A DNA stretch of 64,000 nucleotides from Synergistaceae bacterium (GCA_031272035.1 JAISUO010000034.1:790-64789), one strand, 5' to 3'; positions 3,756 through 57,600 are shown, counted from the first letter of the stretch. A program made the numbers and translations. The notes: generated by a model from the letters alone, not told the origin.

Positions 3756-3759
3756 CGGT

Positions 3760-4473
3760 TTATACCTTTCCCCCGTCCCACAGCTCCTGCAGGGTAACGA
3801 AGCGGTATCCCCGTTCGCGGAGGGCCTTTACGATTCCCGGCAGGGCCCGGACGGTTTCGGGGACCCCCGAATGCATCAGGATCACGGCGCCGGGCCGGAC
3901 GTCTCCCAGCACCTGGGCCGTGATGGTTTCCGCGTTCCGTCCCGTGTAGTCGGCGGTGTTCACGCTCCAGAGCCCCAGCTTCATGTTCATTTGCCGCATG
4001 GCTTTGAAGATCACGAGGCCGAATCCCCCTCCGGGCGGTCGCATGAAGCGGGGAGTCCGGATGTTCAGCCTGTCCATGACTTCATTGCATCGCTCCGTCT
4101 CGCGGATGACCTTTTCCAGCCACAGGGTGTAGAGTTTGGGGTGTGTGTAGCTGTGGTTCTCGATCATATTGCCGGATTGGTCGATGGCCCGGGTGATCTC
4201 TTCGTAACGTTCGGCGAACTTGCCCACCAGGAAGAACGTTCCCGGAGTCCGGAGTTCCCGCAGAACCGTCAGCAGCTCATGTACGCCGTTCTCCCGCGGG
4301 CCGTCGTCGAAGGTCAGAACCACCTCCCAGACGAAGGGATTGCCCGAGGCGATTCCCCATCTTCCTCTTTCATCGGAAAGAGGCCCCCACTGAACGCACA
4401 GAAAAAGACACAGCAACGCGATTGTCAGGCTCCGTTGACTTTTGCGCAGATATTTCGGCGTGGAAATTTTCAT
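3760..4473 (-). CDS. Polysaccharide deacetylase (NodB/CE4 domain), secreted
   Basis: Motifs TFDDGP and HSYTHP. I chose the internal ATG at 4473 (MKISTPKYL..., signal-like LTIALLCLFL), preceded by GAAAGGA. The ORF track extends to 4590. Confidence 0.8.
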   Translation of the reverse strand: MKISTPKYLRKSQRSLTIALLCLFLCVQWGPLSDERGRWGIASGNPFVWEVVLTFDDGPRENGVHELLTVLRELRTPGTFFLVGKFAERYEEITRAIDQSGNMIENHSYTHPKLYTLWLEKVIRETERCNEVMDRLNIRTPRFMRPPGGGFGLVIFKAMRQMNMKLGLWSVNTADYTGRNAETITAQVLGDVRPGAVILMHSGVPETVRALPGIVKALRERGYRFVTLQELWDGGKV

Positions 4474-4743
4474 CGCGATCCTTTCGATTTGTATGAATTT
4501 CGGCTGCACAGATTCCCGGCCTGCATGAATTTTGAATCCTCTGTCTTCCTGCCCCCATGACGCGGATGCATCGATGATATAATGAAACACTATAATGTGT
4601 TTTTGAGAGTTGCGCCAGAGGGAAATATATTTCGAGGCAAAATAATCAAAATGGGTTTGAAGTCAGTGATTGATATTAATGTTAAATTAAAATCAATTTA
4701 AAGCTAAAATGAGTTTGTTAAAGAAGGGCATGTAAAGAGGAAC

Positions 4744-9850: not shown

Positions 9851-9895
9851 AGATTATGTATTCAATGAAATTTATGTATTTATGGAGGGTTTTTG

Positions 9896-11188
9896 ATGCC
9901 GCCTGACGGTCAGAAAATCAACGCATATGAAATTTTACAGTCCCGTGGCCTCGTGGAGTGGTGCAGCGCTCCGGAAAAATTGCAGGAAGTTCTGAACGAG
10001 GGAATGACCACAATTTACATCGGATTCGACCCTACGGCGGACAGTCTGCATGTGGGGCATCTCATCCCCATTATGGCTCTGGCCTGGATTCAGCGATGCG
10101 GACATCGTCCCATTGCCCTTGCGGGAGGGGGAACCGGCCTCATCGGAGATCCCTCCGGAAAGAGTAAGGAGCGCAACCTCATCACCATCGAAGAAGTGCG
10201 GAAAAACGTGGAGGGAGTCCGTCCTCAGCTGGCGCACTTTCTGGACTTCGACTGCGGGAAGAACTCCGCGGTGCTGGTCAACAACTACGACTGGCTGTCG
10301 GAGTTTTCCTTCCTGGATGTCCTTCGGGACGTGGGCAAACATTTTTCCGTCAATGCCCTCATCGCGCGCGACTACGTCAAAAGCCGCCTGACGGATCCCG
10401 ATAAAAGCATTTCCTATACGGAGTTTTCCTACGTCCTCCTCCAGTCCATGGATTTTCGTCAGCTCTATGAAAAATACGGCTGCCGCCTGCAGATGGGCGG
10501 AAACGACCAGCAGGGCAATCTGGTGGCCGGCGTGGATTACGTTCGCAAAACCACGGAGGGCGAGGTCTTCGGCCTGACTCAGCCTCTGCTCCTGACCGCC
10601 GCCGGAACCAAGTTTGGCAAGACGGAGGACGGGGCGGTGTGGCTGGACCCGAAGCGAACCAGCCCTTACCGTTTTTATCAGTTCTGGATCAACTCCGACG
10701 ACAGAGATGTGGAGCGTCTGCTGAAACTTTTCACATTTCTGTCTCTTGAAGACATTTCGGCGCTCATGGAAGAACACGCAAAAAATCCGGCATTGCGGAC
10801 GGCCCAGCGCCGTCTGGCCTTCGAGATAACCCGGCTCGTTCACGGAGAGTCCACGGCGGAAAGCGTCGTAACCGCCAGCGAGGTCCTCTTTGGTTCGGCT
10901 CGTCTTTCGGAAGTCGGAGAGGAGACGTTCGGGATGCTCAAAGAAGAAATGCCCTTTTCCGTCCTCTCTCAGCCTTTGCCCGGAACGGTGGTAGACGTCC
11001 TTGTGGCCTGCGGAGCCTGTGAAAGCAGGGGAGAGGCGAAGCGCGCTATCAAGCAGGGAGGAGTTACCCTCAATGAAAAACGGGTGGAGGAGGAAGGCGC
11101 TTTGCTGTCGAAAGAGACGCTGCTCTGCGGGCGATACGTTTTTGTTCGCATGGGTAAAAAACGCTTTCATCTCATCGCCTTTAATTGA
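9896..11188 (+). CDS. tyrS: Tyrosine--tRNA ligase
   Basis: HIGH motif as HVGH, KMSKS motif as KFGKT, and a C-terminal S4-like domain. The ATG at 9896 lies 6 nt after GGAGGG; the track starts at the TTG at 9893. Confidence 0.95.
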   Translation: MPPDGQKINAYEILQSRGLVEWCSAPEKLQEVLNEGMTTIYIGFDPTADSLHVGHLIPIMALAWIQRCGHRPIALAGGGTGLIGDPSGKSKERNLITIEEVRKNVEGVRPQLAHFLDFDCGKNSAVLVNNYDWLSEFSFLDVLRDVGKHFSVNALIARDYVKSRLTDPDKSISYTEFSYVLLQSMDFRQLYEKYGCRLQMGGNDQQGNLVAGVDYVRKTTEGEVFGLTQPLLLTAAGTKFGKTEDGAVWLDPKRTSPYRFYQFWINSDDRDVERLLKLFTFLSLEDISALMEEHAKNPALRTAQRRLAFEITRLVHGESTAESVVTASEVLFGSARLSEVGEETFGMLKEEMPFSVLSQPLPGTVVDVLVACGACESRGEAKRAIKQGGVTLNEKRVEEEGALLSKETLLCGRYVFVRMGKKRFHLIAFN

Positions 11189-11244: not shown

Positions 11245-12084
11245 ATGAAAAACTGCATTTGGTATGTTTCGGGTTTTCATCGTCCCTGGGAGGCCTCGAT
11301 GGTGGGGAATCTGGCGACCGCCCTGAAAACGGCCGGTTTTCCGGTGCAGGTCTATGTCGCGGGAGGAACGAAGGACATTCGCGTGGAGGGCGTTCTTTCC
11401 TGGAAATCTTTGACGATGTTCGAGCGTTTGGCCGTGGTGCTCTTTCGGGGCGACCTCTGGCATCTCTGGGGTAACCCGCCTTTTTGGTGGAGGTTCATTC
11501 GCCTCAGGGCCCGCACGGTGCATACCCTCCTGGAGGAATCCCCCGCCTGGCAGGGGCACCCCACCCGCCTTTTCCCGGAGCAGACCCTGGAGGGAGAAAG
11601 TCTGGTGAAGCCCACCTTCGAAACCAAAGTCGCTCTGACGGGTGATTCCCCCGAGTCTCTTTCCGCGCTTTTGCTGGCGCTGCCTCCCACGGAGCCCCTT
11701 CAGAAGGCGGTGGAAGCCCTGGCCTGGGAGACGGCTCCGGTGAAAAAAACGGGAAGCGCCCCCGTTTCGGGAGGAGCGATATTTGTGGACGACGCTCCCT
11801 CGAACGCGCTTCTGGCCGCCTGGGCGACAATGCAGGGCATCCCTGTCGTGGCCCGCAAATCTTCACTGCTTGGGGGGCTTCTGGGCAGAGAAGGCTATTT
11901 GGCAGCCGGGGAGGACTCTCAGGACGCCTGGGTCGAGGTTCTCAAAGCTGCCCGCTCCGAAGAGGGAAGAGGGGCTTCGGTGAGCGCCCGTCGTTTTTTG
12001 AAGGAAAAATTCAGTTCCGCCAACGCTGCGGAGTCTCTGATCGAGCTTTACAGTTCCGTCAGCCGAAAGCGGGAAAATGATTGA
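11245..12084 (+). CDS. Hypothetical protein, degenerate GT-B glycosyltransferase-like
   Basis: The C-terminal half (ALLAAWATMQGIPVVARKSSLLGGLLG...ARRFLKEKFS...LIELY) resembles a GT4 C-domain. TTGA stop/start overlap with the acyltransferase gene. Confidence 0.45.
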   Translation: MKNCIWYVSGFHRPWEASMVGNLATALKTAGFPVQVYVAGGTKDIRVEGVLSWKSLTMFERLAVVLFRGDLWHLWGNPPFWWRFIRLRARTVHTLLEESPAWQGHPTRLFPEQTLEGESLVKPTFETKVALTGDSPESLSALLLALPPTEPLQKAVEALAWETAPVKKTGSAPVSGGAIFVDDAPSNALLAAWATMQGIPVVARKSSLLGGLLGREGYLAAGEDSQDAWVEVLKAARSEEGRGASVSARRFLKEKFSSANAAESLIELYSSVSRKREND

Positions 12085-18274: not shown

Positions 18275-19120
18275 TTACAGCGCGTATACGAGAGAGCCGT
18301 TTTGGGGCGGGGTCGCCGAGAGCATCCAAAGGGCTTTTTGAACCATTTCTTCTCGATATTTCACCTCATCCTCCCTGGACAGGCGCGGGTTTCCGAAAAC
18401 ACATTCCACGCTGTTGCCCCGGAGGATCCGGTTGACCCCGAAGCTTTCGGCAATTTTCGTCAGGTTGGTCGCCTGAACGACGGGAATGCCCACCCGTTCG
18501 ATTTCTCTGGCGATGATCGCCCCGCAGCGGGTGCTGGTGCCGCAGGTCGAAGAAAGAATGACCGCGTCCGCCTCCGTTTCTTTCAGGGAAAGCGCTATTT
18601 TCTCTCCGAAGGCCTCGCTGTTTTCCGCGGGCGTCATCACTCCAGCTAAAGTATAAAAAATGTCTGAAAGTTTCCCAATAACACCCTGACGCTCAAGACG
18701 GCGCAGGGCGTCTACCGGCATGAGTCGATTGGGGTCTTCGAGAATCAGCGCGTTGTTGTAACCCTGGTGACTGATTTCGTAGTCCTCCGGGGAGAGCTGT
18801 TCTTTTCCGTAAAAAGAGTAGATGCAGAATTTTTTGGCGTTTGAGGGCGTCACGTCGTCCGGATTCCCTTTGGGGACAAGGCCTCCGTCCGTCACAAGGG
18901 CGATCTTCGACTCCGACAGAGGACGCGAAAGGATGGGAACAGAGGAAATTTCGGCGTTCGGCATGGGAACTTCCGTGCAGTATTCCTCTTTTCTGTATTT
19001 TGCCAGAAGCATATTGATTCCCCGCTTTGGAGCGGGTACAGAGTAATCGACTGCCGTTTCTCCCACCCCTCTGAGAGCGTTGGGATTTCCCGCGCCGTAA
19101 ACGACCCCGAGATTTTTCAC
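18275..19120 (-). CDS. GrdB-family (glycine/sarcosine/betaine reductase component B) Cys paralogue, lacking the N-terminal domain
   Basis: 281 aa, collinear with residues ~160-438 of the selenoprotein at 21461..22777. It reads SSTCGTSTRCGA where the other gene has ST-UGA-GTSTRCGA. GTG start preceded by AAGGAGG. Confidence 0.7.
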   Translation of the reverse strand: MKNLGVVYGAGNPNALRGVGETAVDYSVPAPKRGINMLLAKYRKEEYCTEVPMPNAEISSVPILSRPLSESKIALVTDGGLVPKGNPDDVTPSNAKKFCIYSFYGKEQLSPEDYEISHQGYNNALILEDPNRLMPVDALRRLERQGVIGKLSDIFYTLAGVMTPAENSEAFGEKIALSLKETEADAVILSSTCGTSTRCGAIIAREIERVGIPVVQATNLTKIAESFGVNRILRGNSVECVFGNPRLSREDEVKYREEMVQKALWMLSATPPQNGSLVYAL

Positions 19121-21460: not shown

Positions 21461-22777
21461 ATGGCAAAATACAGAATTGTACATTACGTCAACCAGTTTT
21501 ATGGCGGATTCGGCGGAGAAGACACGGCGGGAATGGGAATAGAGGTCCGCGAAAATCCGGTGGGACCCGGACTCGCCCTGCAGGCGGCCCTTGGCGAAGC
21601 GGGAACGGTGGTCGCCACGGTGATCTGCGGAGATAATTACGCGACAGAAAACCTCGAAAACGTGACGGAGGAAATCCTGAAGATCGTTGAAGGCTTTAAA
21701 CCGGACATATTCGTCGCCGGCCCCGGATTCAACGCCGGGCGCTACGGGCTGATCTGCGGCGCGGTGACCTCCAAAGTCGCCGAACAGCTGCTTATTCCGT
21801 CGGTCACGGCTCTCTATCAGGAAAACCCGGGAACGGATCTTTACAAGGACCGGTGTTACATTCTTAAAACGGACAACAACGCCCGCGACATGAAAAAGGT
21901 CATTTCCGAGCTGGCTCGTTTCGTTCTGCGCCTGGCCGCGGGGGAGGTCATCGGCAAGGGCGATGTGGAACACTACCACGGCAATGGCCCGGCGCCCCTG
22001 ATCGACTACTCTCTTCCAGCGCCGCGGCGGGGTGTGGATATGCTTCTCGCGAAACACGCGGGGTGTCCGTTCAAAACGGAGGTCGTCATACCCTCCCGGG
22101 AACCTGTTCCCATTCCCCGGCTTCACAAGCCGCTTTCGGAAATCAAACTGGCCCTCGTAACCGACGGAGGGCTCGTTCCAAAGGGTAACCCGGACAAAAT
22201 GGTCCCCACCAACTCCACCATGTTCAAATCCTACCCGATAGAGGGAAAAGAGCGTCTGGATGCTCAGGATTACGAGGTCAGCCATCAGGGATACAACAAC
22301 GCTTTCGTTTTACAAAATCCCAACCGGCTCGTCCCTCTGGACGCCGCGAGAACTCTGGTCGCCAGGGGGGAAATCGGGGAGCTCCTTGAGAAATACTACA
22401 CGACCGCGGGCGTGATGACGCCCATGGGCACAGGGAAAAAGTTCGGAGAAAATATCGCGAAAGAGCTGAAAGAAGCCGATGTGGACGCGGTGCTTCTCGT
22501 CTCCACCTGAGGAACGTCTACCCGCTGCGGTGCAGTGATGACAAAAGAGATAGAACGCGCCGGTTTACCTGTAGTTCACGTCACCAACCTCACAAAAATT
22601 GCCGAAGGCATCGGTTCCAAACGCATATTCAGAGGCAACAGCATCGTTCACGTTCTGGGAGATCCCCAGCTTTCACCCGACATGGAGGCACGGTACAGAG
22701 AACAGCTGCTGTCCCAGGCCCTGAAACTTCTGGAAGATGCTCCTGTCGACGAAACGAGCAGCATTATTTACGAATAG
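21461..22777 (+). CDS. GrdB/GrdF/GrdH-family selenoprotein B (in-frame UGA = selenocysteine at 22508-22510)
   Basis: ORFs 21461..22510 and 22535..22777 are in the same frame. Read-through gives ...VDAVLLVST-U-GTSTRCGAVMTKEIERAG..., and the Cys paralogue at 18275..19120 has Cys at the UGA position. Confidence 0.85.
22508..22510 (+). other. Selenocysteine (UGA) codon
   Basis: An in-frame TGA within a conserved ST-x-GTSTRCGA motif. It aligns to TGC (Cys) in the paralogue. Confidence 0.8.
22516..22542 (+). promoter_or_regulatory. Candidate bacterial SECIS hairpin
   Basis: Upper stem CGCUGC/GCAGUG (22523-22528 / 22532-22537) with a GGU apical loop, starting 12 nt after the UGA. A possible lower stem is GUCU/A-GAC. 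Confidence 0.5.
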
Positions 22778-35804: not shown

Positions 35805-36122
35805 AATCCTTTTTCGGCGACCTCGGGGCATATCGAAGACGAACCCGCTGAACACCTGACACACCGGCAGATTTCCGGAAAAGCCCCCCTTCGATTTTCC
35901 ATAAAAATGTGAAAATTATATTTCCATGCAAAATATTCTGTCGTAGAATCCCATTTTTGTTGTAAAATTCATTTCAAAGAGATTTTTGACTCATATTTTC
36001 AATGTTCCGGGACAGCGTTTTTAACTTTGAATTCAGTGAAATTTGTTGACGCAGGTGATGCGATAATGAATATTCCCGCTTTTTGGCATGGGAAATTTTG
36101 GTAATCAAGGGAGATGCAGATA

Positions 36123-38294
36123 ATGAAGAATTTGCGTATGACTTCAAAATTGATGTTGGGTTTCGGAATTGTGTTAGTGGTATTTACTGTAGCGGTCGTT
36201 CTGACCTGGATAAACCTGAAGAAACTTACAGACGGAAGTACGTTTCTTCAGGACAGCGTCGTCCCGGCGATGCAGTATATGAGCAGTATCAACAGCGATG
36301 CTTACGAGCTTTTCCTGACTGTCAGAGAAACGCAGTACACGGAAACCGCCGAGTCCATAGCCGATGACGACAAGAAAATCGCGGTTCTGGAGAAAAGTCT
36401 GGCGAACATGGAGGATCTCGGCGCGAAATATCCCACCATGCAGTCCCCGAAAATGGTCAGAGATTCGATTCTGCCCGTTCACAAAAACTATGTGGATATT
36501 GTAGAGAAGGTTCATGCCGCCATTGCGAAAAAAGATAAAGGTCGGGCCGCGCTGGGCAAGGCGGGATCGGATGTCTACGAGAGCCTCAAAAAGGCGCTGG
36601 ACAGTTTTTACAATACTATGAAAAACTCTAACTTGAGCGATGCCAAAGCTCAGGAGCGGGTGGATAATCTCTACCGCGTCAGCAAAATGCTGGCGGACGC
36701 CGTAGAGATGCGGCGGGAACTCGTAGTGGCCGTGGACGTGGCTCATGACGTCAAAGCGATGCGCGAGACGGGAGAAATTGCAAAAAGTATTCAGCAGGCG
36801 GCCCAGACCGTGCTCGACCTGGTGGAGGACCCGGAACGTCAAAATCTCATGAAAAGTATACTGAGTCAGCTCAGCGGCTATTCCGAAGATCTGGAAAATC
36901 TGATAAAGGCCTATGAAGAGCTGAACGGCCTGAACGAGGCCCGTAAACCGGTGATGCTCAGCTATAACACAGAAACCTCGAAAATTGCCGGCTTCGCTCA
37001 GGATACGGTCAAGACCGTCGCCGGAACCAGCCTTACCGAGCTGAACACCACCACCATCGTCCTGTTGGCCTCCGCCGCGCTGGCCATCGTATTGGGGCTT
37101 TTGATCGCCTTCTTCATCTCCCGGTCTATTTCCAAGCCCCTCAATACCATCGTGGACCTGGCGAAACGCTGCCAGGAGGGCGATATGACCATTCAAAGGG
37201 CGGACTTCGGTTATGAGGGCAAAGATGAGCTGGGGAACCTGGTGGGAGCCATGTCCGAGATGATCATCACTCAGGAGGCCGCGATGCAGAACGTCGTGTC
37301 CGTCGCGGACGCCGTGGGGAACGGCGCGAACAGCCTTTCCGCCATAGCCGAGGAAACGAACGCCTCCATGGAAGAGGTGAAGGCCTCCCTCGACCAGGTC
37401 GCGTCCCTGAGCCAGAGCAACGGAGCGGCCCTTGAGGAAAGCAACGCGGGAGTGGAGGAAATGAGCGCGGGCGCGGATACCGTGGCGCAGTCCTCCACGG
37501 AGAGCGCCTCGTTTATCGCCCAGACGACGGAGGCCTCCGGCAAGGCCATTGAGACGGTAAACGCCGTGATCGAGGGAATGAAGAACGCGGACAAAAACTC
37601 CAGAGAAAGCGAAGCTAAAATACGGGAGCTTGTGTCCTCCGTGGAAAACGTCAGCAGCTTTGTTTCGGTCATTACAGGCATTGCCGATCAGACGAACCTT
37701 TTGGCTCTGAACGCGGCCATTGAGGCGGCCCGCGCCGGAGAGGTGGGACGCGGATTCGCCGTGGTGGCGGAGGAAGTGCGGAAGCTGGCTGAGGAGTCCG
37801 CCCGGGCGGCCCAGAACGTCAACGGCATCATCGTAGAGCTTCAGAAACAGGCTCAGGAAAGCATTTCCGCCACCACCGAGGCCGGAAAGGCTCTGAGCGA
37901 AACCCTGACCCAGGCGTCAGAGGCGCAGAAGCAGCTGGACGATGCCCTGAAGCAGATCAACAAGGCCAACGATTCGATCCAGAACATCGCCGCGGTGGCG
38001 CAGGAGCAGGCCGCTTCCAGCAAAGAGGTTGCCACGGCCATCGACAACGCCACCAAATCCACAGTGGAAATGGCGGACACGGTCTCCAATATTCAGCACG
38101 CCACGGAGGAGACGGCAAAAGCCGCCCAGGGCGTGGCTGAACAGGCCGAGTCCATGAGCGAAAACGCCCAGTCCCTGACGGAAGCGCTGTCCCATTTCAA
38201 ACTGCGGACAAGCAAAGCCAAAACCGACGCGGTGAACAGTGCGAACAGCAATACGAAAAACGCGAAGAAAGCACCGCTGAAACTGAAAGCCTGA
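36123..38294 (+). CDS. Methyl-accepting chemotaxis protein
   Basis: N-terminal TM, periplasmic helical sensor, second TM, HAMP domain and the conserved signalling hairpin ([37 protein letters not shown]). Confidence 0.9.
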
Positions 38295-46458: not shown

Positions 46459-46561
46459 AAATAAATAAGTCAACGCCCGATCGCGCGCGAGAAAACCGAC
46501 GCAACCGGGCGCTGGGCATTAAAAATTGAAGATTAATTGAAGATTAGAGATTGAAACTTGT

Positions 46562-49500
46562 TTATTTTTTGATCTGCGCCTCCAGCTTTGGAATGAACGC
46601 CTCCACTTCCGGGTTCTTATGATATTTGAGGCTTTCCGTGTAACGGTTCAGCGCGTCCGCATATTTCCTGTTTCTGTAGAGATCGTTGGCCTCGTGCACC
46701 AGTTTGTTGGCCTTTTCCATATTCTTCAGGGCGACCTCCAGATGGTCGGCGAAATCCCTGACCTGCGGATTGTGGCTGAGTTTGTAGCTTTCTCTGTACT
46801 TGTCCAGCGCCTCCGCGTATTTTTTCTCTCTGTAGAGAGTGTTGCCGTCGCGGAAAAGAGCATCGGCCTGAACCAGGTCGATGGAGGAAACCTCTGTCGA
46901 CGTCTTTTCCTCGGCTTTCTTCGGGTAGACGTCTTCGGACAGGTCGTCGCTGGCGCTTTCGGAGGGAATTACGACGTTGGAAGCCGGCAGGGCGGATACC
47001 GGCGGAGACAGAGTCGCCTCAAGTTTCTTTATTTTCTCGGACAGATCCACGTCGTCCGGTGTTTTCTGAAGGGCGCGTCTGTAGCGTTCCAGGGCGTCTT
47101 TGGGCCTTTTCTGCTTCAGAAGATTGTCCCCTTCTTTGGTCAGAGCCTGAGCCGCGGTGGCATCCGCGTTTCTCACGTAGATGTCCGCCTTTTCGTCGTA
47201 ATCGTATTTCAGACTTTCACGATACTTCTCCGTCGCGTCCGCAGGTCTTTTCTTTTTGATCAGAGCCTCGGCGTCCTTTCGCAGTCTCGCTCCCTCGGAC
47301 TGAGCGAAACGTTTCGTTTCCTGCTGAAGGATTTTTTCCAGTTCTTCGTCTCCTCGAAGGAGAAGGCTTTCTCTGTATTTCTCCAGCGCCTCGGAGGTTT
47401 TTTTGTTCTTCAGTAGGGAATCTCCCTCCCTGCGCAGGGCGTCGGCGCGCTCCTTCACCACTTTTTCCTCCTCGCTCCGCTCCATGATAAGGGCCATATA
47501 AGCCGTGAGCTGAGGATCGGGAAAGAGTTTCCGGCTCTGTTCATAGAGCTTCAGCGCGTCAGAGTATCGCTTTTTATCGATCAGAGCGTCGGCCTTCGCC
47601 CGCAGGTCCCCCGCCTTCGCCAGAGTCGTTTTTTCTTCAAGAATTTCGCGGTTCAGTCGCGCCACGTCTTTGCTGGTCATGTCGTTTTTTTCGAGCAGAA
47701 GGCTGTCCTGGAGACGAAGCAGCGCTTCAATTTTACGTCCCTGTTCCAGCAGCGCCCCTCCCTCCGCACGCAGTCGGGCCGCCAGATTTGCGCTGGCGCG
47801 GACTTTTTCCTCCGCTTCCTTCAGGGCAAGTTTCATTTCCGTCGTTATTGCCCCGGGTCGCAGAGCTTCCGCCTCCTGCGCCCGGCTTTCGGCTTCTTCA
47901 TATTCGCCGGTGGAGAGCAGCCAGGTGCTTTCCGAGAGAAGGCGAGCAGAAAGTTCCATTTTTTCGAAGTCTTCCTTCATTTGTTTCACGCCGAAGGTCA
48001 CGTCGGGGTCGCCGGGGTCGAGGACGGAAGCCTGAACCGCCGTTTCCAGGGCTTTCAGGTGCCGGTCTTCTTTCCACAGGTCCAGGGCCTTCAGCCAGGT
48101 CTCCCAGGCAAGCGCGCGTCGGGCGTCCCGGGTGACGTCGCTTTTGTTCACGATGATCGGTATGCTGAGTTTCCCTTCTCCAAGAACGATGCCCCGGGCA
48201 TCCTTCGCAACGGCCGTCAGTTTCGCGGTGCCGGGAAGCACTCGGCGGACCAGGGCTGCGTTGTCGCCGGAGGCCAGAATGGAGGAGTCCGAATCCACCG
48301 TCCAGAGCCAGGAGACCGCTCCGTCCGGCAGAGGCGAGAGACTGGCCTGAACTTCGATGGGAGTTTCCGTGACAAATTCGTGAACTTCCTCCAGACGTTT
48401 CTGGTTTGCGTTCCACAGGAGAGCGTTTTTTCTGCCCTCGTTTGCGGTGAGGCTGACGCTCCAGTCCTCTGCGGTGAGAGAAAGGGTTCGCTGCAGAGAG
48501 ACCGTATCCGTTCCCTTTCGCAGGACGGAAAGTTCAACCGTCACCGGCAGATCGTTCGCCGGATAAAAGGAATAGGTCTTTCCCTCGGAGCCGGGATTTC
48601 CGTCCCGGATGTTCCCCTGAACCTTCCAGCGGAACTCCGCGTCTTCGATGTTTCCGTTGTCGACGCGAATAAGGGTGCGCTGTCCTCGTCGGGGCAGGGA
48701 CGGCACGGCCCTCAGGACTGGAGGATTTGCCTGCAGAGCGGCGAGCCAGGCCGCTTCGATTCTGCTCTTTTGGACTTTGCTCAGAAGCTGGGCGGATTCA
48801 TCGCTGGAGGCCAGAGCCAGAGAAGCGGTCAGTTTTTCCTCGGCCAGTTCAAGGCGCGACTCCCTTTCCAGAATGACGGCCTCCCTGTAAAGTTCTCCGG
48901 CCCGGGCCAGAGTGATGGCATCTTCGCTGACGCGTCCGCGCAACACCTGAATCGAACGGAGAACGTTGTCGTCAATCCAGACGCTCTCGCTTTCGATGAA
49001 AAGATCGAGGGCTTTTTCCAGATTCCCCTCGGCTTCGGCTTTGCGGGCCTCACCGGCCAGTCCCGCGGCCCGACCGATTTTTTCATTTCTCGTTTTGATG
49101 GTCTGTTCAAGGCGCTGTATGAGTGAGAAATTTTCCTTCCCAGGGAAAATCGACTCGCTTCTGCGGGCAAGGGCCAGGGCTTCGTCCAGTCGGCCCTGTT
49201 TTTCGGCTTCTCTGGCCTGTTCCGCGAGAATTTTCGCTTCCGTTCGATGTTTGTTTCGCGTTTCGATGCGCCGGGCCAGCTGCGTCATACGGGTCTGAGT
49301 GTCGGATTCCCGACGTACGTTTTGAGCGCGATGGTAGCGGTTCATGGCCTCTTCCAGACGACCTTCAACCTCCAGACGCTCCGCTTCCTTCACCAGCGCC
49401 GCGACCTGGGAGATCTGAGCCTGAATGGCGGCAATGTGAGTTTTCACCCGTTCCCTCGACCGCTGGGAGACGGCGTTGGACCAAAGTCCGGCCGCCTGGG

Positions 49501-51058
49501 AGTATTTCTCCAGAGCCTGCTCCAGAAGCTGCACGTTTCCCTGATTTTCCAGCCCGCGAGCCTCCAGTTCCGCGGCCTCAGCGGTCAGGCGTTCCGCCTC
49601 GTTTCTGCGGCTTTGCTGAAGCTGCAGGGCGGAACGAATCCGTTCCAGGTCGTCGCCGGTTTCCGGAAGGGAGTAAATTTCACGGGATTCGGTCATTTTG
49701 GAGAGCGCGTTTTCCAGATCTCCCTGAGATTCCAGGATCAGCGCGATGTCCCGCACGGTTTTCGCTTCTTCCATTTTTCTCCGGCGAGCCCTGAAACGCC
49801 CCTCCACGTCCATCCGGGCGGCATGTACGAGGGGGTCGGAGAAGAGAAGCAGGCTTTCTTCGTATTTCTTCAGGGCGCTTTCGAACTCATCTTTTTCCGC
49901 CAGGGCATCGGCCTCCTTCGCCAGTGCCGCGGCGCTTTCCCGGGCCTTCTTCGTCCGGTTCAGAATTCCTTCCAGATCTTCAATGCTTTGCGCCGTCCGG
50001 GAGTCGGGATAGAGGGCCTGGGCCTGACGATACTGCATAAGGGCGTCCTCCGGTCTGCCGTCGCGCCACAGAGCCGCCGCGCTGGAGCCGAGAGCCAGTG
50101 CGTTGAGGTAATTGTCCCTTGCCTGACTGAGTCTGTCCAGATCCTTACGCAGAGCGCTTTCGTCCATTCCCGCCAGGATCAGTTCTTCCGAGGCCAGACG
50201 GGCAAGGCGCAGGGCGTTTTCCGCCTCGTCTCTTTTCTGCGCCAGAGCCAGGGCCTTCTGCCACTGCTCCCAGCCCTTCTGCAGCCTGAGGCTGCGCTTC
50301 AGGTCTTCGGCGGAGAATTGAACATCGAAGCTGGTTCGGGCATCTCCCAGTTCGATGCCCTTTTCGTCGAGGATACGGACGGAAAGAACGCCGACTCCCG
50401 TTGTTTCTCGATAAACGGAAACGCGGTTATCCTTTTGGGAAGTGAGAGTGACGCCCTCGCCGGGGCTCCAGACCCAACGGAGATTCTTCGTATCCCGGGA
50501 AGGGCTGAGGACGGCTTCCAGAGAGATGGGGCTTTCCGTGGCGAGTCCCTGGAGCTCCTTCAGTCTTTTCGATTCGTCGTCCCAGATTTTGATTTTTTCG
50601 TCTCCGGAGGACGGGACAGTACGAAGGGTGACGGTGTATCTTTGGGGTATGACGGTCACGGAGGCGTTGTCGACGGTCTCTCCCCCCACCCGATTCCACA
50701 GGGTCGCGGAAATCGTCGTGGAACCCTCTCGGGCTTCCCAGCACACTTCTCTTTCGGAGAGACTGCGAATTCCCTCCGCCTCCCCCCGCCAGTCCCAGTA
50801 AACCCCCTGTCGGGCGGGGTTGAAGTCCGGAATGGCGGCGGTAATCGTTACGGTCTCTCCCCGAAAAGGACGCTCGGGAACGACTTTGAGCACAAATCCT
50901 CCTTTTGAGGATTTGATTTCTTCCGCCCCTTCCGCCCCGGGCAGAAGAGCTCCCGCGGGAAGGAAACCCGTGCAGAGAAGAAGAAAGAGGGTCAACTGTA
51001 AAAAAAGGCGCGATAATGAAGAAAGAAGAGGTAAAAATACAAAAGAAATTTTTTTCAT
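46562..51058 (-). CDS. Giant secreted protein: two (Ig-like pair + W-rich helix) modules, each followed by long TPR/Sel1-like helical repeats
   Basis: The ORF is 1530 aa in the track. The probable start is the ATG at 51058 (MKKISFVFLPLL..., signal peptide). Recurrent repeats of the type ALEKYRESLLL, ALKLYEQSRKLFPDP and ALNRYTESLKYHKNPEVEAF. Paralogous to 52588..54546. Confidence 0.75.
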   Translation of the reverse strand: MKKISFVFLPLLSSLSRLFLQLTLFLLLCTGFLPAGALLPGAEGAEEIKSSKGGFVLKVVPERPFRGETVTITAAIPDFNPARQGVYWDWRGEAEGIRSLSEREVCWEAREGSTTISATLWNRVGGETVDNASVTVIPQRYTVTLRTVPSSGDEKIKIWDDESKRLKELQGLATESPISLEAVLSPSRDTKNLRWVWSPGEGVTLTSQKDNRVSVYRETTGVGVLSVRILDEKGIELGDARTSFDVQFSAEDLKRSLRLQKGWEQWQKALALAQKRDEAENALRLARLASEELILAGMDESALRKDLDRLSQARDNYLNALALGSSAAALWRDGRPEDALMQYRQAQALYPDSRTAQSIEDLEGILNRTKKARESAAALAKEADALAEKDEFESALKKYEESLLLFSDPLVHAARMDVEGRFRARRRKMEEAKTVRDIALILESQGDLENALSKMTESREIYSLPETGDDLERIRSALQLQQSRRNEAERLTAEAAELEARGLENQGNVQLLEQALEKYSQAAGLWSNAVSQRSRERVKTHIAAIQAQISQVAALVKEAERLEVEGRLEEAMNRYHRAQNVRRESDTQTRMTQLARRIETRNKHRTEAKILAEQAREAEKQGRLDEALALARRSESIFPGKENFSLIQRLEQTIKTRNEKIGRAAGLAGEARKAEAEGNLEKALDLFIESESVWIDDNVLRSIQVLRGRVSEDAITLARAGELYREAVILERESRLELAEEKLTASLALASSDESAQLLSKVQKSRIEAAWLAALQANPPVLRAVPSLPRRGQRTLIRVDNGNIEDAEFRWKVQGNIRDGNPGSEGKTYSFYPANDLPVTVELSVLRKGTDTVSLQRTLSLTAEDWSVSLTANEGRKNALLWNANQKRLEEVHEFVTETPIEVQASLSPLPDGAVSWLWTVDSDSSILASGDNAALVRRVLPGTAKLTAVAKDARGIVLGEGKLSIPIIVNKSDVTRDARRALAWETWLKALDLWKEDRHLKALETAVQASVLDPGDPDVTFGVKQMKEDFEKMELSARLLSESTWLLSTGEYEEAESRAQEAEALRPGAITTEMKLALKEAEEKVRASANLAARLRAEGGALLEQGRKIEALLRLQDSLLLEKNDMTSKDVARLNREILEEKTTLAKAGDLRAKADALIDKKRYSDALKLYEQSRKLFPDPQLTAYMALIMERSEEEKVVKERADALRREGDSLLKNKKTSEALEKYRESLLLRGDEELEKILQQETKRFAQSEGARLRKDAEALIKKKRPADATEKYRESLKYDYDEKADIYVRNADATAAQALTKEGDNLLKQKRPKDALERYRRALQKTPDDVDLSEKIKKLEATLSPPVSALPASNVVIPSESASDDLSEDVYPKKAEEKTSTEVSSIDLVQADALFRDGNTLYREKKYAEALDKYRESYKLSHNPQVRDFADHLEVALKNMEKANKLVHEANDLYRNRKYADALNRYTESLKYHKNPEVEAFIPKLEAQIKK

Positions 51059-51172
51059 TTTCTCGAGTTTCCTTTCAATATTCCCTTCGGTTTTTTCAAA
51101 AGTATCACAATTGTTTCTGCCGAAAGCGCAGTCCGAAGGAGTACAGGGGAACACTTTGGCCTGGTGGAGTTG

Positions 51173-51679
51173 TCAGGCGGGGTTTAAAATGGAAGGATCT
51201 GCGGTGAAAAGGGTCAATTCTCCACTTTCATCCCACCTGAGCAGCAGAGTCAAAGGGTCTCGAATTTGAACGCTGGTCCGTACGGGGCGGAGGTTGGCTC
51301 CCTCGCGCTCCAGAATGAAAAACGTAAAGCGGTCCCTGTCCATGGTGCGGAATTCCTCTCTCAGGGCGACCAGGTTGAGGGGAAGGACGGTGATTTTCGT
51401 CCCCGCGTCAAGGATGGGCTCCCAGATTCTCCGGTCGGTCGCGGAAAGCAGCTTCGACAGGGCGATCGCCGCAGGTGGAGTCATCCATTCAGCATCGGTT
51501 TTTTCAACTGAAGTCCGTTCAGTCGGAGCCTGTTCAGTTGCAGTCCGTTCAGTTGAAGTTTGTTCCGGAGCCTGTTCGGCCGGAGTCCCTTCAGTGGGGA
51601 AAGAAAGCGTCTCCGGTTCGAGATGCACCTCTCCCGTTTTCAGATAATCTTTGAGGCTGGGTCTCCTCTTTCTAGTCAT
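51173..51679 (-). CDS. Hypothetical ParA-partner-like protein (basic N-terminus, T/E/Q/A/P-rich disordered centre, globular C-terminus)
   Basis: The ATG at 51679 overlaps the ParA-like stop by 8 nt. The N-terminus is MTRKRRPSLKDYLK, followed by the repeats TERTATEQAPTERTS. I recognise no ParB/HTH motif. Confidence 0.5.
   Translation of the reverse strand: MTRKRRPSLKDYLKTGEVHLEPETLSFPTEGTPAEQAPEQTSTERTATEQAPTERTSVEKTDAEWMTPPAAIALSKLLSATDRRIWEPILDAGTKITVLPLNLVALREEFRTMDRDRFTFFILEREGANLRPVRTSVQIRDPLTLLLRWDESGELTLFTADPSILNPA
51505..51600. repeat. Imperfect intragenic tandem repeats
   Basis: GTCCGTTCAGT at 51513 and 51543; CGGAGCCTGTTC at 51524 and 51566. They encode the TERT / EQAP repeats of the partner protein. 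Confidence 0.8.
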
Positions 51680-52439
51680 GGATATTGCACCTCCTGAGAA
51701 ATTCACGGGCGACCCGTTCGTAATCCCGGGCGCCGTTGCTCGAGAGGTCGTAGGAAAAGATGGAGACTCCGAGACTGCCGGCCTCCGTCAGGCTGATATT
51801 TTGACGAATGTAGGCCTCGAAAAGCAGAGAACCGAAGAAACTGCGCACCTCTTTGGCCACCTCCCGATAGATGAATACGTTGGGGCTGTGTCGGGTAAAC
51901 AGCACTCCCAGCAGAGAGAGGTCGGGGTTCAGGCGTTCTCTGAAAAGAGGAATGGCCTCGTTCAGGAGCTTTAACCCCGCCAGGCTGTAAAATCCTCCGT
52001 CCATGGGGATGACGAGATGCTTCGCTGCCGCCAGAACGTTGCGCGTGAAAATCCCCAGCTGAGGGGGACTGTCGAAAAAAAGGAAATCGTAGCGGTCCGG
52101 ATCGATGTTTTCGACGGCTTCCTTCAGAAGGGTGTCCCTTCCGATCTGTCCCTCCGGGTGAAGTTCCACCATGACCAGATCCAGAGTCCCTGGAACAATG
52201 TCTACTTCCTCCCGGCGCAGGACGACTTCGTCCCATCTGGCGGAGCCCGTCAGAAAATCGACGATATGAAGCTGCTCCGGGGTCACTTCAATGCCGAAGC
52301 TGGTGCTGAGGTTGGCCTGGGGATCCATATCCATAACCGCCACTCGTTTGTGAAGGCGTGCAAGAGCAACAGCCATATTCTGACACGCCGTCGTTTTTCC
52401 AACGCCGCCCTTCAGATTGCAAAACCCGACGGTTATCAT
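51672..52439 (-). CDS. ParA/MinD-family P-loop ATPase (orphan, no ParB)
   Basis: Deviant Walker A NLKGGVGKTT, A' motif VAVMDMDPQ, Walker B DFLFFDSPP. The ATG at 52439 lies 8 nt after GGGGGA. Confidence 0.9.
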   Translation of the reverse strand: MITVGFCNLKGGVGKTTACQNMAVALARLHKRVAVMDMDPQANLSTSFGIEVTPEQLHIVDFLTGSARWDEVVLRREEVDIVPGTLDLVMVELHPEGQIGRDTLLKEAVENIDPDRYDFLFFDSPPQLGIFTRNVLAAAKHLVIPMDGGFYSLAGLKLLNEAIPLFRERLNPDLSLLGVLFTRHSPNVFIYREVAKEVRSFFGSLLFEAYIRQNISLTEAGSLGVSIFSYDLSSNGARDYERVAREFLRRCNIHD

Positions 52440-52587
52440 GCACAATTCCCCCTTTAAGCAGGAGAATACCATAATATACGGATATAAAAAGCCGTAGTCT
52501 TTATTGTTTTGCTCTCTTCAGGCCTCTTTTTTCAGATTTTCTGTTTCCAGGTACAATAAAGAAAAACCTGGCAGTAACAAAAAAACG

Positions 52588-54546
52588 CTACCTGGGATTC
52601 GACGCGGCCGTTGCCGGTCCCGCCGCGGCCGTCGGGACGATGTCGGCGCTCCCGAGCGTGCTTTCGATATGCCGCGTGAAGTTTTCGACCTCGGCATTGG
52701 CGTGAACGGAGAGGCTTTCCCTGTATTTCGCCAGAGCTTCGGCGTATCTGCCCTCATTATAAAGGCTGTTTGCCTCTTTTATAAGGACGTTGGCTTTCAG
52801 GACGGATTCGTACTCCCGGAGGGATGTTTCCACCCGACTGATCCAGTCCGAGAGCCGGGGATCCCTGGATATGGCGTAACTCTTGCGGTAGGAGTCCAAA
52901 GCCTCCCTGTATTTGCCCTGCTTGTACAGAGCGTGGCCTTCCTGCAAAAGGCGCATGGCATCCGCCTGAGTCCCTATTCCGAAATCCTCCGGAGCGCGGA
53001 CGACCTGCGTCGAGGACGATTTCACGGTCTTTTCCAGAGCGGCGATCTGTTTGGCCAGAGCGTCGTCCGGCCACAGAGCCTGGCTTTCCTTGAAACGAAC
53101 CAGGGCCTGCGCGTTCTGATTTTTCTTCTGAAGGTCGGCGGCCTCTCGGCGTAACGCGGCGGCTCGGGTCCGACGTTCCTTGATGGCCTCTTCCAGATCC
53201 TGGGCGTGACTCTCCACACTGGATACCGCTTCCAGTTTCAGGCTGTCTCTGTATTTCTCCAGAGCTTCCGTGAGCCTGCCCTCCGCTTCCAGTTTTTCTC
53301 CCTCCGAGGCAAGGGAGTTCGCCTGGGCGATGGAGGCCAGGCGCTTTTCGATGCGGTCGGCCCTTTGCGCCACGCCATCGTCGGGAACGAGGGCCATCGT
53401 TTCCCTGTAATATTTCAGGGCATCTTCAAAGAGGTTTTCCTGGTCGTAAGCGGCGGCCGTGTCCTTCAGCCACTCCGCTTTCTGACGCCGGATGCGCGCC
53501 TCGTCGATTTCCACCTCCAGCGCCCGGATGTTGCTCTCGATGTCTTCCAGGGGCCAGGCGGCGTAGGCCCGGCGCATAACCTTGAGGGCCTCCACCGGCT
53601 TGTGTTCATTTTGCAGGGAGGCGGCGTCGGCGCTGAGTTTCCGGGAACGTTCCACCCGGTTGAAGTTGGCGGTCATGCTCCTGAGACCGTCGGAAATTTC
53701 CAGGGTCTCGGGGTCGTTCTCCGCCGCTTCTCTGGCCCGGACGATGGCGTTATCGAAGTTTTTCGCGTCCCACATGTCCAGTGCCTCGGTCCACTGCCCC
53801 CAGGCTTTTCTGCGTCGAATGGAATCGTCCACTCTCGATCGGGCTATGGGAACGTTCACGCTTTTTTCACCATGTCCCAGCACCGTTCCCGAAGCCGTGG
53901 AAACCACGACGGAAAGCACCGCATCGCCGATTTCGTTCCGCACCACCGTGACCTCGTTTTTCTCTCCGCCTTCCCGAATGGCCGTGGAGGCATCGGTGTT
54001 CCAGCGGCATTGGATTCCATCCTTGAATGTGGGGGTCAGGGCCACGGTGAAACGGATGGGTTCTCCGGCGATCAGCCCTTCGGCGGGGACGTCCTGCTTT
54101 TTGTTCACGTCCCACAGCAGGAAGGGATCGGGTTTGATCATGACCACCTCCACGTTGAACTCTTTGGCTTTTACGGAGATGTTTGCCGTCCCCAGCGAAT
54201 CGCCATCGGGTCCGGAGGCGGAAACGGCCGCGATCACCGGCTCGGTGTCCACCGGTGTGAAACGGCACTCAAGCCCTCCTTTACGAAGAGAGATCGGTTT
54301 GGCGTTTCCCTCGAAGGACCAGTCGTAAACGACGCCCTCCTGTCCCAAAGCGTCCCCCTTCAGGGAAAGAACCACCTCGCAGCCGATGTAGGCCTCTTCC
54401 TGCTGTTCGATGCGAAGAGCCTCAGCCCCCTCGGTGGAAACGGGAGCCGCAATCAACAAAGCCGCGGCCAGAAGCAGGGACGTCTTTGAGAAGAATTTCA
54501 AAAACAGGTTCTTTATCATTTTTTCTGTCTTTTTTGCGCGTTTCAC
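52588..54546 (-). CDS. Secreted Ig-like pair + TPR/Sel1-like repeat protein, paralogue of 46562..51058
   Basis: The GTG at 54546 follows GGAAGG. Signal peptide KRAKKTEKMIKNLFLKFFSKTSLLLAAALLIAAPVS. Same module order and same C-terminal repeat type (ALDSYRKSYAISRDPRLSDW, ALAKYRESLSVHANAEVENF). Confidence 0.75.
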   Translation of the reverse strand: MKRAKKTEKMIKNLFLKFFSKTSLLLAAALLIAAPVSTEGAEALRIEQQEEAYIGCEVVLSLKGDALGQEGVVYDWSFEGNAKPISLRKGGLECRFTPVDTEPVIAAVSASGPDGDSLGTANISVKAKEFNVEVVMIKPDPFLLWDVNKKQDVPAEGLIAGEPIRFTVALTPTFKDGIQCRWNTDASTAIREGGEKNEVTVVRNEIGDAVLSVVVSTASGTVLGHGEKSVNVPIARSRVDDSIRRRKAWGQWTEALDMWDAKNFDNAIVRAREAAENDPETLEISDGLRSMTANFNRVERSRKLSADAASLQNEHKPVEALKVMRRAYAAWPLEDIESNIRALEVEIDEARIRRQKAEWLKDTAAAYDQENLFEDALKYYRETMALVPDDGVAQRADRIEKRLASIAQANSLASEGEKLEAEGRLTEALEKYRDSLKLEAVSSVESHAQDLEEAIKERRTRAAALRREAADLQKKNQNAQALVRFKESQALWPDDALAKQIAALEKTVKSSSTQVVRAPEDFGIGTQADAMRLLQEGHALYKQGKYREALDSYRKSYAISRDPRLSDWISRVETSLREYESVLKANVLIKEANSLYNEGRYAEALAKYRESLSVHANAEVENFTRHIESTLGSADIVPTAAAGPATAASNPR

Positions 54547-56643: not shown

Positions 56644-57600
56644 ATGCGACTTCTGACCCGGTCAGATTTTGACGGATTGATGTGTGCTGTTTTGCTCAAG
56701 GAACTGGAGCTTTTCGAAGAAAAGAAATTTGTTCATCCCAAAGATATTCAGGATGGAGTAATTGCCGTCACGGGGGAGGATATTCTGGTCAATATTCCTT
56801 ACGCTCCGGGATGTGGAATGTGGTTTGACCACCACACCAGCGAGGACGCCAGAAAACTGATGTACCAATATAAGTACGTTGGCGCTTCCTGGCCCGCGCC
56901 GAGCTGCGCCCGGGTGATTTATGAGTATTATGGCGGAGCGAAGGGACGACTGGCTCGCTTCAGGCAGATGGTCATGGATGCGGACAAGTGTGATTCCGCT
57001 CACTTCACTCGCGAGGAAGTGCTGGATCCCCAGGGAATGGTTTTGCTTTCCTTTATTATGGACCCGCGCACGGGGTTTGGTCGATACCGGGACTTCCGCA
57101 TTTCCAACTATCAGCTTATGGACTGCCTGATCGATCACCTTCGAACGATGAATATCGAAGAGATTATGCAGTTGGATGACCTGCAGGAGCGGGTGCGCCT
57201 GTACAACGAGCATCGGGAACCCTTCGAAAAAATGATGCGGGACCACTCCTGGACCGATGGAGCGGCGGTCATTACCGATCTCCGGGAGGTGGAGGAAACC
57301 TACGTGGGAAATCGTCACGTCATTTACGCTCTCTTCCCCGACCAGAACGTGTCGGTGCGAGTGTTCGACGGGCGGGAAAAACAGTTCTGCGTTTTTGCCG
57401 TGGGATACAGCATCCTGAACCGTACCGCTACGGTGGACGTGGGCAAGCTGATGCTGAAATATGGCGGCGGCGGTCACCGCAGAGTGGGAACCTGTCAGGT
57501 GCCTTACGCGGAAGTGGATCGCATTCTGAAGGAAATTGTCGAAGAGATCAATGCCCGTAACTGGCAAATGCTTAACATATCGGGTTTTGAAGAGTTTTAA
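56644..57600 (+). CDS. DHH-family phosphoesterase-like protein
   Basis: SDFDG (motif I) and WFDHHTS (DHH motif). 318 aa. The ATG follows GGAGGTGACAGAGGG. Confidence 0.65.
   Translation: MRLLTRSDFDGLMCAVLLKELELFEEKKFVHPKDIQDGVIAVTGEDILVNIPYAPGCGMWFDHHTSEDARKLMYQYKYVGASWPAPSCARVIYEYYGGAKGRLARFRQMVMDADKCDSAHFTREEVLDPQGMVLLSFIMDPRTGFGRYRDFRISNYQLMDCLIDHLRTMNIEEIMQLDDLQERVRLYNEHREPFEKMMRDHSWTDGAAVITDLREVEETYVGNRHVIYALFPDQNVSVRVFDGREKQFCVFAVGYSILNRTATVDVGKLMLKYGGGGHRRVGTCQVPYAEVDRILKEIVEEINARNWQMLNISGFEEF

Follow-up and report, generated by a model that had tools for sequence, protein, structure and literature searches.

A candidate ParA/MinD-type localisation module of Synergistaceae encoded together with exported Ig/TPR rod proteins

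Spatial organisation in bacterial cells depends mainly on ParA/MinD ATPases, many of which are "orphans" without a known partner or cargo. The Synergistota, a diderm phylum with gut and oral habitats, have been little studied. Here, a locus of four genes is described that lies in a 64,000-nucleotide stretch of DNA from a Synergistaceae bacterium (GCA_031272035.1, JAISUO010000034.1:790-64789). This stretch, called the window in the following, is ordinary chromosome of a gut-type metagenome-assembled genome. The genes encode, in this order, a predicted exported protein named D, a ParA/MinD-type ATPase (ParA), a partner of 168 aa (the adaptor), and a second, very large predicted exported protein (the giant). 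The locus had been singled out by a sequence-only reading, which interpreted it as an orphan ParA-type ATPase with a partner, embedded between two paralogous secreted proteins with immunoglobulin-like (Ig) domains and tetratricopeptide repeats (TPR), and which suggested a spatial-organisation or envelope-assembly system.

The locus was compared with described systems. McdA-McdB of carboxysomes, ParC-ParP of chemoreceptor arrays and PomZ-PomXY resemble the locus in that a small deviant-Walker-A ATPase is encoded beside a partner that is not ParB. In addition, the partner is composed of a basic disordered N-terminal peptide, a low-complexity linker and a separate C-terminal domain, and the systems are chromosomal, lineage-restricted and apparently non-essential. 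In contrast to these systems, the adaptor described here has no relative in Pfam, NCBIfam or the PDB, ParA-adaptor fusions occur, the candidate cargo is exported and is not a cytoplasmic body, and the nucleoid-binding arginines of ParA are replaced.

BcsQ-BcsR, TadZ/CpaE and FlhG share with the locus that the gene of a cytoplasmic ATPase is linked in the genome to genes for periplasmic or outer-membrane components, among them TPR proteins; a role in localisation fits better here than a nucleoid ratchet, and ParA has weak matches to BcsQ profiles. An assignment to one of the individual families was nevertheless rejected. For BcsQ the scores were far too low (TIGR03371, 57.9 versus a cutoff of 157.85; PRK10037, 32.2 versus 399), and cellulose synthase genes were found neither in the window nor in the related loci. 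ParA has no receiver-like N-domain and no tad neighbours, as TadZ/CpaE would require, and it has none of the N-terminal activator helix, the C-terminal membrane-targeting helix and the flagellar neighbours of FlhG. MinD was dismissed because of the missing C-terminal membrane-targeting helix, a TIGR01968 score of 40.8 versus 212.9, and the absence of min genes nearby. The best match in sequence and structure is chromosomal Soj/ParA of the ParABS systems, which is of equal length and has the same catalytic motifs. It differs from the ATPase of the window, which has no ParB, parS or origin context and carries Asn/Lys and Ser in place of arginines R189/R218 and R238.

ParA and its adaptor

The motifs of the deviant Walker A superfamily (NLKGGVGKTT, DMDPQ and FFDSPP) are intact in ParA, and KGGVGKTT and DSPPQLG are invariant in the family alignment. 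The protein matches the Pfam families AAA_31 (143 bits, cutoff 27), CbiA (68.9 bits, cutoff 25.4) and CBP_BcsQ (1e-9), and it is below every NCBIfam equivalog cutoff, including that of ParA_partition (NF041546, 80.8 bits versus 180). It is Soj-like in size and has neither an N- nor a C-terminal extension: the P-loop strand is located right at the start (MITVGFCNLKGG), and the protein ends with ...EFLRRCNIHD directly after the last core helix. Among solved structures, M. xanthus ParA (8RAY, 3e-42) and Thermus Soj (1e-37) come nearest. A canonical Soj acting with ParB was rejected because no ParB is encoded in the window and the score is under the ParA_partition cutoff. This agrees with the sequence-only reading, which had likewise noted that genes for known cargoes are missing nearby.

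The arginines with which Soj-type proteins bind non-specific DNA (R189/R218 in B. subtilis) were compared by aligning ParA to 8RAY and 1WCV. The respective positions have Asn, in some members Lys or Ser, and Ser. The arginines are replaced in each of the 13 displayed family members, with Ser at the position of M. xanthus R238, which was mapped via the crystallised 8RAY construct (residues 21-274). The R238E variant of M. xanthus ParA does not bind DNA (PMC12462528). The replacement thus fits a role other than nucleoid-based DNA partition, although neighbouring arginines (in TRH and IRQ) might compensate for the lost residues.

Three parts make up the adaptor: the N-terminal peptide is basic and conserved, the linker behind it is disordered, and the C-terminal domain is small and of the alpha/beta type. 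The N-terminus is nearly invariant (M-[SA]-K-[KR]-x-RPSLKDYLxTGxV in alignments A1 and A2; in a wider form RPSL[KR]xYLxTG), and the peptide is the best-conserved part of the protein. In the window, five 15-nt tandem repeats (51494-51595, minus strand) encode the pentapeptides AEQAP/EQTST/ERTAT/EQAPT/ERTSV of the linker, which ranges from about 30 to 340 aa among orthologues and is acidic or rich in Pro/Lys. An AlphaFold2 (AF2) model had predicted local distance difference test (pLDDT) values of 54-59 for residues 1-20, below 50 for residues 21-62, and about 88-91 for residues 70-160. The conserved C-terminal domain of about 95 aa is predicted to adopt the fold alpha-alpha-beta-alpha-beta-beta-beta, and in the short adaptors it contains six invariant arginines. 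Foldseek yielded no PDB match with an E-value below 0.6, the adaptor had no match in Pfam or NCBIfam, and a Pfam scan of 23 family members gave nothing consistent. The family is very small: clustering at 90% identity gave 78 clusters, a set of 1.84 billion proteins contained only 42 representatives, and all named records belong to the Synergistota. No adaptor homologue was present in 72,556 plasmids or in 50,697 phages, so that a plasmid, phage or mobile origin was rejected. An anti-phage defence system was also discarded, as PADLOC returned a weak P-loop match only.

Partner proteins of ParA/MinD ATPases bind the ATPase via a positively charged, disordered N-terminus, and their remainder binds the cargo (PMC10241942). 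Because its layout fits this published definition, the adaptor was assigned to this type of partner: the N-terminal peptide is charged and has low pLDDT values, and its binding to ParA is a prediction. Therefore, the term "orphan" used by the sequence-only reading had to be given up, as ParA has a dedicated adaptor, the product of the adjoining gene, whose conserved N-terminus is a "luggage tag" of the ParA type.

The pairing was further analysed in a comparative set of 58 loci. ParA and the adaptor were adjacent in every locus that was long enough to contain both (about 45 loci with either gene), usually with an 8-nt overlap. In one Synergistaceae lineage the two are fused to proteins of 400-451 aa, in which ParA is followed by a Pro/Glu-rich linker and the C-terminal domain of the adaptor; the fusion P0147 matches the adaptor profile with an E-value of 1.1e-14. 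In another lineage the partner is a long variant of 460 aa, which has the same N-terminal peptide (MPIKDRPSLRGYLSTGIV), an acidic linker of about 340 aa, and a C-terminal domain that has diverged but is still homologous (hhalign probability 91%). The natural fusions support a physical partnership, and it is very probable that ParA and the 168-aa protein form a cognate pair of ATPase and adaptor. The fusions do not contain the stimulatory peptide, which suggests a stable localisation rather than a ratchet-type transport. Taken together, the adaptors represent a new family of cognate partners with a strongly conserved putative ATPase-binding tag, restricted to Synergistota in named records. The short N-terminal peptide could act as an orthogonal tag in engineered positioning systems.

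The idea that the C-terminal domain could be a PilZ receptor of cyclic di-GMP (c-di-GMP) arose from an RxxxR motif (REDFR) in the adaptor and from GGDEF/HD-GYP/EAL genes that neighbour pairs standing without D (see below). It was rejected, because the fold is mixed alpha/beta and not a barrel, and because a Pfam PilZ match was missing; the second motif reads RTSVQI and not [DN]xSxxG. The neighbours in question belong to one inherited syntenic block and are missing in two loci (L011 and L016).

The exported proteins and the conserved gene order

Both large proteins have signal-peptide-like N-termini, as the sequence-only reading had stated. For D, signal peptide cleavage is predicted near EGAEA|L, and a full-length orthologue with 37% identity has a classical AFA|A signal peptide. 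Behind the signal peptide, D has a pair of beta-sandwich domains and then TPR-type helical repeats over about 400 aa; Pfam TPR_2 was matched with 43.9 bits by D and with 74.2 bits by the giant (cutoff 27). The AF2 model of D (mean pLDDT 84.8) contains the signal-peptide helix, beta-sandwiches at residues 59-140 and 145-246, and a rod of about seven units of about 55 aa, each built from a long and a short helix. According to Foldseek, the beta-sandwiches match tandem FN3/Ig-like modules, which backs the earlier label "Ig", and D matches consensus TPR proteins (E 2.6e-7). Homology of D to a known periplasmic TPR protein was rejected, since the Foldseek and hmmsearch matches were generic TPR and tandem Ig/FN3 proteins only. 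Altogether 45 homologues of 620-660 aa were found, and all of those with a source name are from Synergistaceae or Synergistales.

In architecture, D is similar to the PflA-type periplasmic flagellar scaffold of C. jejuni (PDB 9HMF, chain K), which likewise has a signal peptide, an N-terminal beta-sandwich and a long TPR region. No other PDB chain gave an alignment over almost the whole length of D (705 columns, E 1.3e-5). However, the TM-score was 0.10, the sequence similarity did not go past generic TPR, and D has no flagellar genes nearby, so that the likeness is architectural only.

The TPR rod of D is interrupted at residues ~522-545 (window ~52955-53025) by a non-helical insert, VRxPEDFGIGTQADA. 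It is the best-conserved segment of D, with an invariant core GIGT..DA, and it is a candidate interaction site.

The giant consists of a signal peptide and two tandem D-like modules, each with a beta-sandwich and a TPR rod. The paralogy with D that had been proposed was borne out, as D aligns with the giant at residues ~114-688 and 841-1391 (25-27% identity, E 1e-26 to 1e-30). Orthologues of the giant with 38-58% identity were found in loci L007, L009, L010, L026-L037 and L058. The giant is confined to a crown group that comprises the window, L007, L009, L010, L034 and loci in which D is directly followed by the giant. It is a lineage-specific tandem duplicate of D that is later than the core of the locus.

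Homologues of all four genes exist in other Synergistaceae genomes and in metagenomes, showing that they are not chance open reading frames (ORFs). The order D then ParA on the same strand was found in at least 16 distinct loci with four partner variants, in which the identity to the proteins of the window is 36-100% for D and 54-100% for ParA. A full-length D orthologue is located directly upstream of ParA in all non-Aminobacteriaceae lineages that have the pair. At least three different flank contexts were seen: the lineage of the window has DHH-like/M20 genes, the fusion lineage has GlgB/Bac_transf/BioY, and the flanks of L008 are different again. The gap between D and ParA ranges from -4 to 148 nt; the value of 148 nt is that of the window, and the other loci have -4 to 74 nt. 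In the fusion and long-linker lineages the gaps are -4 to +4 nt, which suggests translational coupling.

In the ParA tree, all ParAs that are linked to D and have a short adaptor group in a single clade apart from those of stand-alone pairs, and neither ParAs of this clade nor the sampled fused or long-linker types were found away from D. D-ParA-adaptor without the giant was present in L008, L038-L044 and L046-L048. No additional conserved gene follows the module; the downstream genes vary (LysR, POR and others). Thus, of the four-gene unit that had been proposed, the link between D and ParA is conserved beyond close relatives, but the conserved core comprises only the three genes D, ParA and adaptor. 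A lack of synteny in relatives and a ParB gene close by, which the sequence-only reading had named as findings that would speak against it, were both looked for, and neither was observed. The operonic link of this ParA/MinD ATPase to exported Ig/TPR rods is thus conserved, but not obligatory (see below).

Possible functions of the link between D and the pair

Analysis of the gene neighbourhood is the standard of the field for assigning a cargo to ParA/MinD ATPases (PMC10241942), and by this criterion D, and in this lineage also the giant, is implicated as cargo. Known examples of ParA/MinD ATPases that position envelope or secretion machinery are TadZ/CpaE, BcsQ and VirC1 (PMC11407121); the proteins of the window could be assigned to none of these families. 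Our best explanation, to which an even chance is given, is that the locus is a Synergistaceae-specific localisation module of the ParA/MinD type in an operon with the exported proteins that it would help to place. That the link between D and the pair is functional appears somewhat probable, and the specific model that the pair positions an exported scaffold is tentative. It is tempting to speculate, albeit with the same reserve, that this could be the first ParA/MinD-type system with a soluble exported protein scaffold as cargo. The cytoplasmic ATPase and its adaptor would then determine, across the inner membrane, the place of secretion or assembly of periplasmic Ig/TPR rods (D and the giant) in the diderm envelope, and the C-terminal domain of the adaptor would dock onto a membrane component.

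In this localisation module, ATP-bound ParA dimers would bind the N-terminal peptide of the adaptor, which would stimulate hydrolysis, and the C-terminal domain of the adaptor would dimerise and/or bind a cytoplasmic or inner-membrane component. ParA and adaptor could then mark the site at which D (and here the giant) is exported or assembled into a scaffold of the periplasm or outer envelope, by analogy with TadZ, BcsQ and FlhG, which determine where envelope machines are placed. As D is exported, a bridging component would be required. The module would be accessory, i.e., a positioning system and not a structural or biosynthetic component, because D and the giant stay intact after deletion of the pair.

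Several observations weigh against this explanation. First, ParA-adaptor pairs without an adjacent D occur in the Aminobacteriaceae/Aminivibrio group, and their C-terminal domain is well conserved. They are located in a block of genes for a methyl-accepting chemotaxis protein (MCP), FlK and GGDEF/HD-GYP, followed by the pair and then by MntP and GIY-YIG, and in the ParA tree these stand-alone pairs and the D-linked ones are two cleanly separated clades. As the C-terminal domain is equally conserved in the clade that lacks D, its direct ligand is probably not D, but a conserved cytoplasmic or membrane component. Second, loci in which D is directly followed by the giant without the pair (L026-L031, L033, L035, L037, L058 and probably L036) are interleaved with four-gene loci in the D tree, and the coupling is therefore not obligatory. 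Third, no linking protein was found for D and the giant, which are exported, and ParA and adaptor, which are cytoplasmic and have no transmembrane segment. Fourth, inherited synteny could account for some of the conserved adjacency, as D is co-syntenic with the DHH-like and M20 genes in many loci, too. Of the spatial-organisation or envelope-assembly system that had been suggested, the conserved link to D has thus been retained, but an interaction of ParA or adaptor with D or the giant, and hence an action on exported proteins, is deduced from gene neighbourhood only.

The neighbourhood of the stand-alone pairs was also recorded. In L002-L006, L012-L015 and L017-L024 the pair is located between a divergent GGDEF/HD-GYP gene and, often, a convergent PAS-GGDEF-EAL gene, and MCP and FapA genes are nearby. 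The EAL gene and the 3' end of the adaptor gene share 13 nt in L002-L006. These GGDEF/EAL neighbours are probably inherited synteny, and a connection of the stand-alone pair to c-di-GMP may exist.

The closest relative of the window, L058 (GCA_031273365.1), allowed a direct view of the loss of the pair. Its D is 72% identical, and it has the same DHH-like/M20 flank. The 559-nt spacer between D and the giant (L058 9430-9987) still contains a degraded ParA fragment, which is 49% identical to ParA residues 130-182 at the amino acid level (53 residues, E 9e-10) and 68% identical at the nucleotide level (160 nt). This indicated that the pair was lost secondarily, and recently, in L058. Deletion of the pair from between D and the giant was counted in nine or ten loci; probably it was lost several times, with D and the giant remaining intact. 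The stand-alone pairs, the D-giant loci without the pair and the L058 relic show that the modules are separable, which is a correction to the sequence-only reading.

The repeated loss fits an accessory positioning role and a second explanation equally well. According to the latter, which is rather unlikely in our view, there are two independent modules that are neighbours by descent: the pair, which landed behind D in the ancestor of one lineage, positions an unrelated cytoplasmic cargo (a chromosomal region, a chemoreceptor array, a storage granule or the division site), and D and the giant are a self-sufficient envelope pair. Apart from the clean secondary loss in L058, this is favoured by the different but stably inherited position of the stand-alone pairs, which have the same C-terminal domain, by the occurrence of D-giant pairs without ParA-adaptor in several flank contexts, by the co-synteny of the DHH-like and M20 genes with D, and by the different cell compartments in which the two would act. 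However, the order D then ParA has been kept over at least three flank contexts and down to 36% identity of D, and genes that are merely adjacent rarely remain so tightly packed over such divergence. The gaps of -4 to +4 nt and the absence of D-linked-clade and sampled fused or long-linker ParAs away from D also argue for a coupling.

A third explanation would be that ParA is a BcsQ/TadZ-like assembly factor of an exopolysaccharide or pilus machine, with D and the giant as periplasmic TPR scaffolds comparable to BcsC, PelB, AlgK or TadD. The matches to CBP_BcsQ (see above) and to NCBIfam cellulose_yhjQ (1e-15), the role of known ParA/MinD ATPases in positioning secretion machinery (PMC11407121), and the presence of Bac_transf, GLF, PS_pyruv_trans, MBOAT/AlgX, GT61 and GtrA/UbiA genes adjoining the module in some lineages are in line with this. 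Nevertheless it is improbable, as the score is far under the family cutoff, D has no beta-barrel domain in the AF2 model, genes for a synthase, a secretin or an outer-membrane barrel are not conserved beside the module, and none of the polysaccharide genes is conserved between lineages or present in the window.

Still less probable is a chromosomal type-Ib-like partition cassette, in which the adaptor would be a small ParG/ParB-like centromere-binding protein with its Arg-rich C-terminal domain on DNA, and ParA would serve the segregation of a chromosomal region or an integrated element: type Ib par loci likewise have a ParA gene ahead of the gene for a small protein with a basic N-terminal tail, and the proteins are of similar size, the closest solved relatives are chromosomal Soj/ParA, and the six arginines are invariant in short adaptors, but these arginines are lost in the fused and long-linker variants, the predicted fold is neither ribbon-helix-helix nor helix-turn-helix and has no PDB match, ParA lacks the DNA-binding arginines of Soj and a sufficient ParA_partition score, the flanking intergenic DNA contains no arrays of direct or inverted repeats, the plasmid and phage collections contain no homologues, and the chromosomal position is stable with metabolic flanks.

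If the link of the localisation module to D is functional, it would define a new class of cargo for the ParA/MinD family, an extracytoplasmic scaffold, and would offer a first route into the envelope organisation of the Synergistota. If the link is merely historical, the result is still a new adaptor family.

Coordinates of the locus and other genes of the window

The coordinates are summarised in Table 1. It was verified by ORF analysis and translation that all four genes are on the minus strand at the positions reported before, and the 148-nt gap between D and ParA as well as the 8-nt overlap of ParA and the partner (51672-51679, shared by both ORFs) were reproduced. The start of the giant was set by the gene call on an identical Logan contig (L001).

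Table 1. Features of the D-ParA-adaptor-giant locus (window coordinates; RBS, ribosome-binding site)
Feature	Position	Strand	Remarks
Gene D	52588..54546	-	652 aa from GTG; agrees with NCBI call P0079
Alternative starts of D	54588 (GTG), 54519 (ATG)	-	ORF reading
D-ParA spacer	52440..52587	-	148 nt; read off sequence; AT-rich stretch ahead of ParA RBS
Inverted repeat CCAGGT-N13-ACCTGG	52547-52571		in D-ParA spacer; read off sequence
ParA	51672..52439	-	255 aa, ATG at 52439, RBS AAGGGGGA
Adaptor (168-aa partner)	51173..51679	-	own RBS AGGAGG
Adaptor N-terminal peptide MTRKRRPSLKDYLKTGEV	51626-51679	-	alignments; basic, conserved
Adaptor disordered linker	~51479-51625	-	includes pentapeptide repeats
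Adaptor C-terminal domain, residues ~68-165	51185-51478	-	alpha/beta (AF2)
Giant	46562..51058	-	1498 aa from MKKISF; raw ORF reaches 51154
Terminator-like hairpin and T-run	46496..46508	-	just 3' of giant; consensus scan; weak evidence

In the consensus scan, the hairpin behind the giant was the sole minus-strand terminator-like site outside the coding region, and no such site was called in the D-ParA spacer. This is weakly consistent with a single D-ParA-adaptor-giant transcript. An internal promoter in the spacer is possible. The inverted repeat in the spacer is not a typical terminator, because it has no T-run, and it could be a binding site for a regulator.

A Pfam scan of the approximately 50 ORFs of the window revealed no genes for ParB, flagella, pili, cellulose or carboxysomes, and the intergenic DNA contains no parS-like repeat, the only tandem repeat being the coding one of the adaptor linker; the sequence-only reading was right in both respects. 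The genes of the window include ABC exporters, tyrosyl-tRNA synthetase (TyrRS), a lipid A acyltransferase, RadA, glycine reductase, citrate lyase, TRAP transporters, an M20 peptidase, HtpG, and one MCP about 8 kb from the locus (36114-38294). tRNA genes were not found in the window. Three plus-strand ORFs of 539, 279 and 283 aa (8287-9906, 11245-12084 and 3709-4560, respectively) have no match in Pfam or NCBIfam.

The DHH-like flank gene (56644-57600, plus strand) encodes a protein of 318 aa with DHH-phosphoesterase-like motifs (DFDG..., FDHH) and without a Pfam or NCBIfam match. Orthologues were present in L009, L010, L028, L039-L048 and L058, usually next to the M20 peptidase gene and divergent from D. 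The protein is 80-90% identical across Synergistaceae whose D is 36-66% identical, and it looks like a strongly constrained, unannotated enzyme family.

Two GrdB genes deserve mention. The plus-strand gene (21461-22770) contains an in-frame TGA at the conserved site ...LLVST-U-GTSTRCG..., which probably encodes selenocysteine and is the reason why the ORF list ends this gene early at 22510. On the minus strand, another GrdB-like ORF (18275-19120) has Cys at this site (SSTCGTSTRCG); its match to the Pfam GRDB profile is limited to the C-terminal half (positions 181-347).

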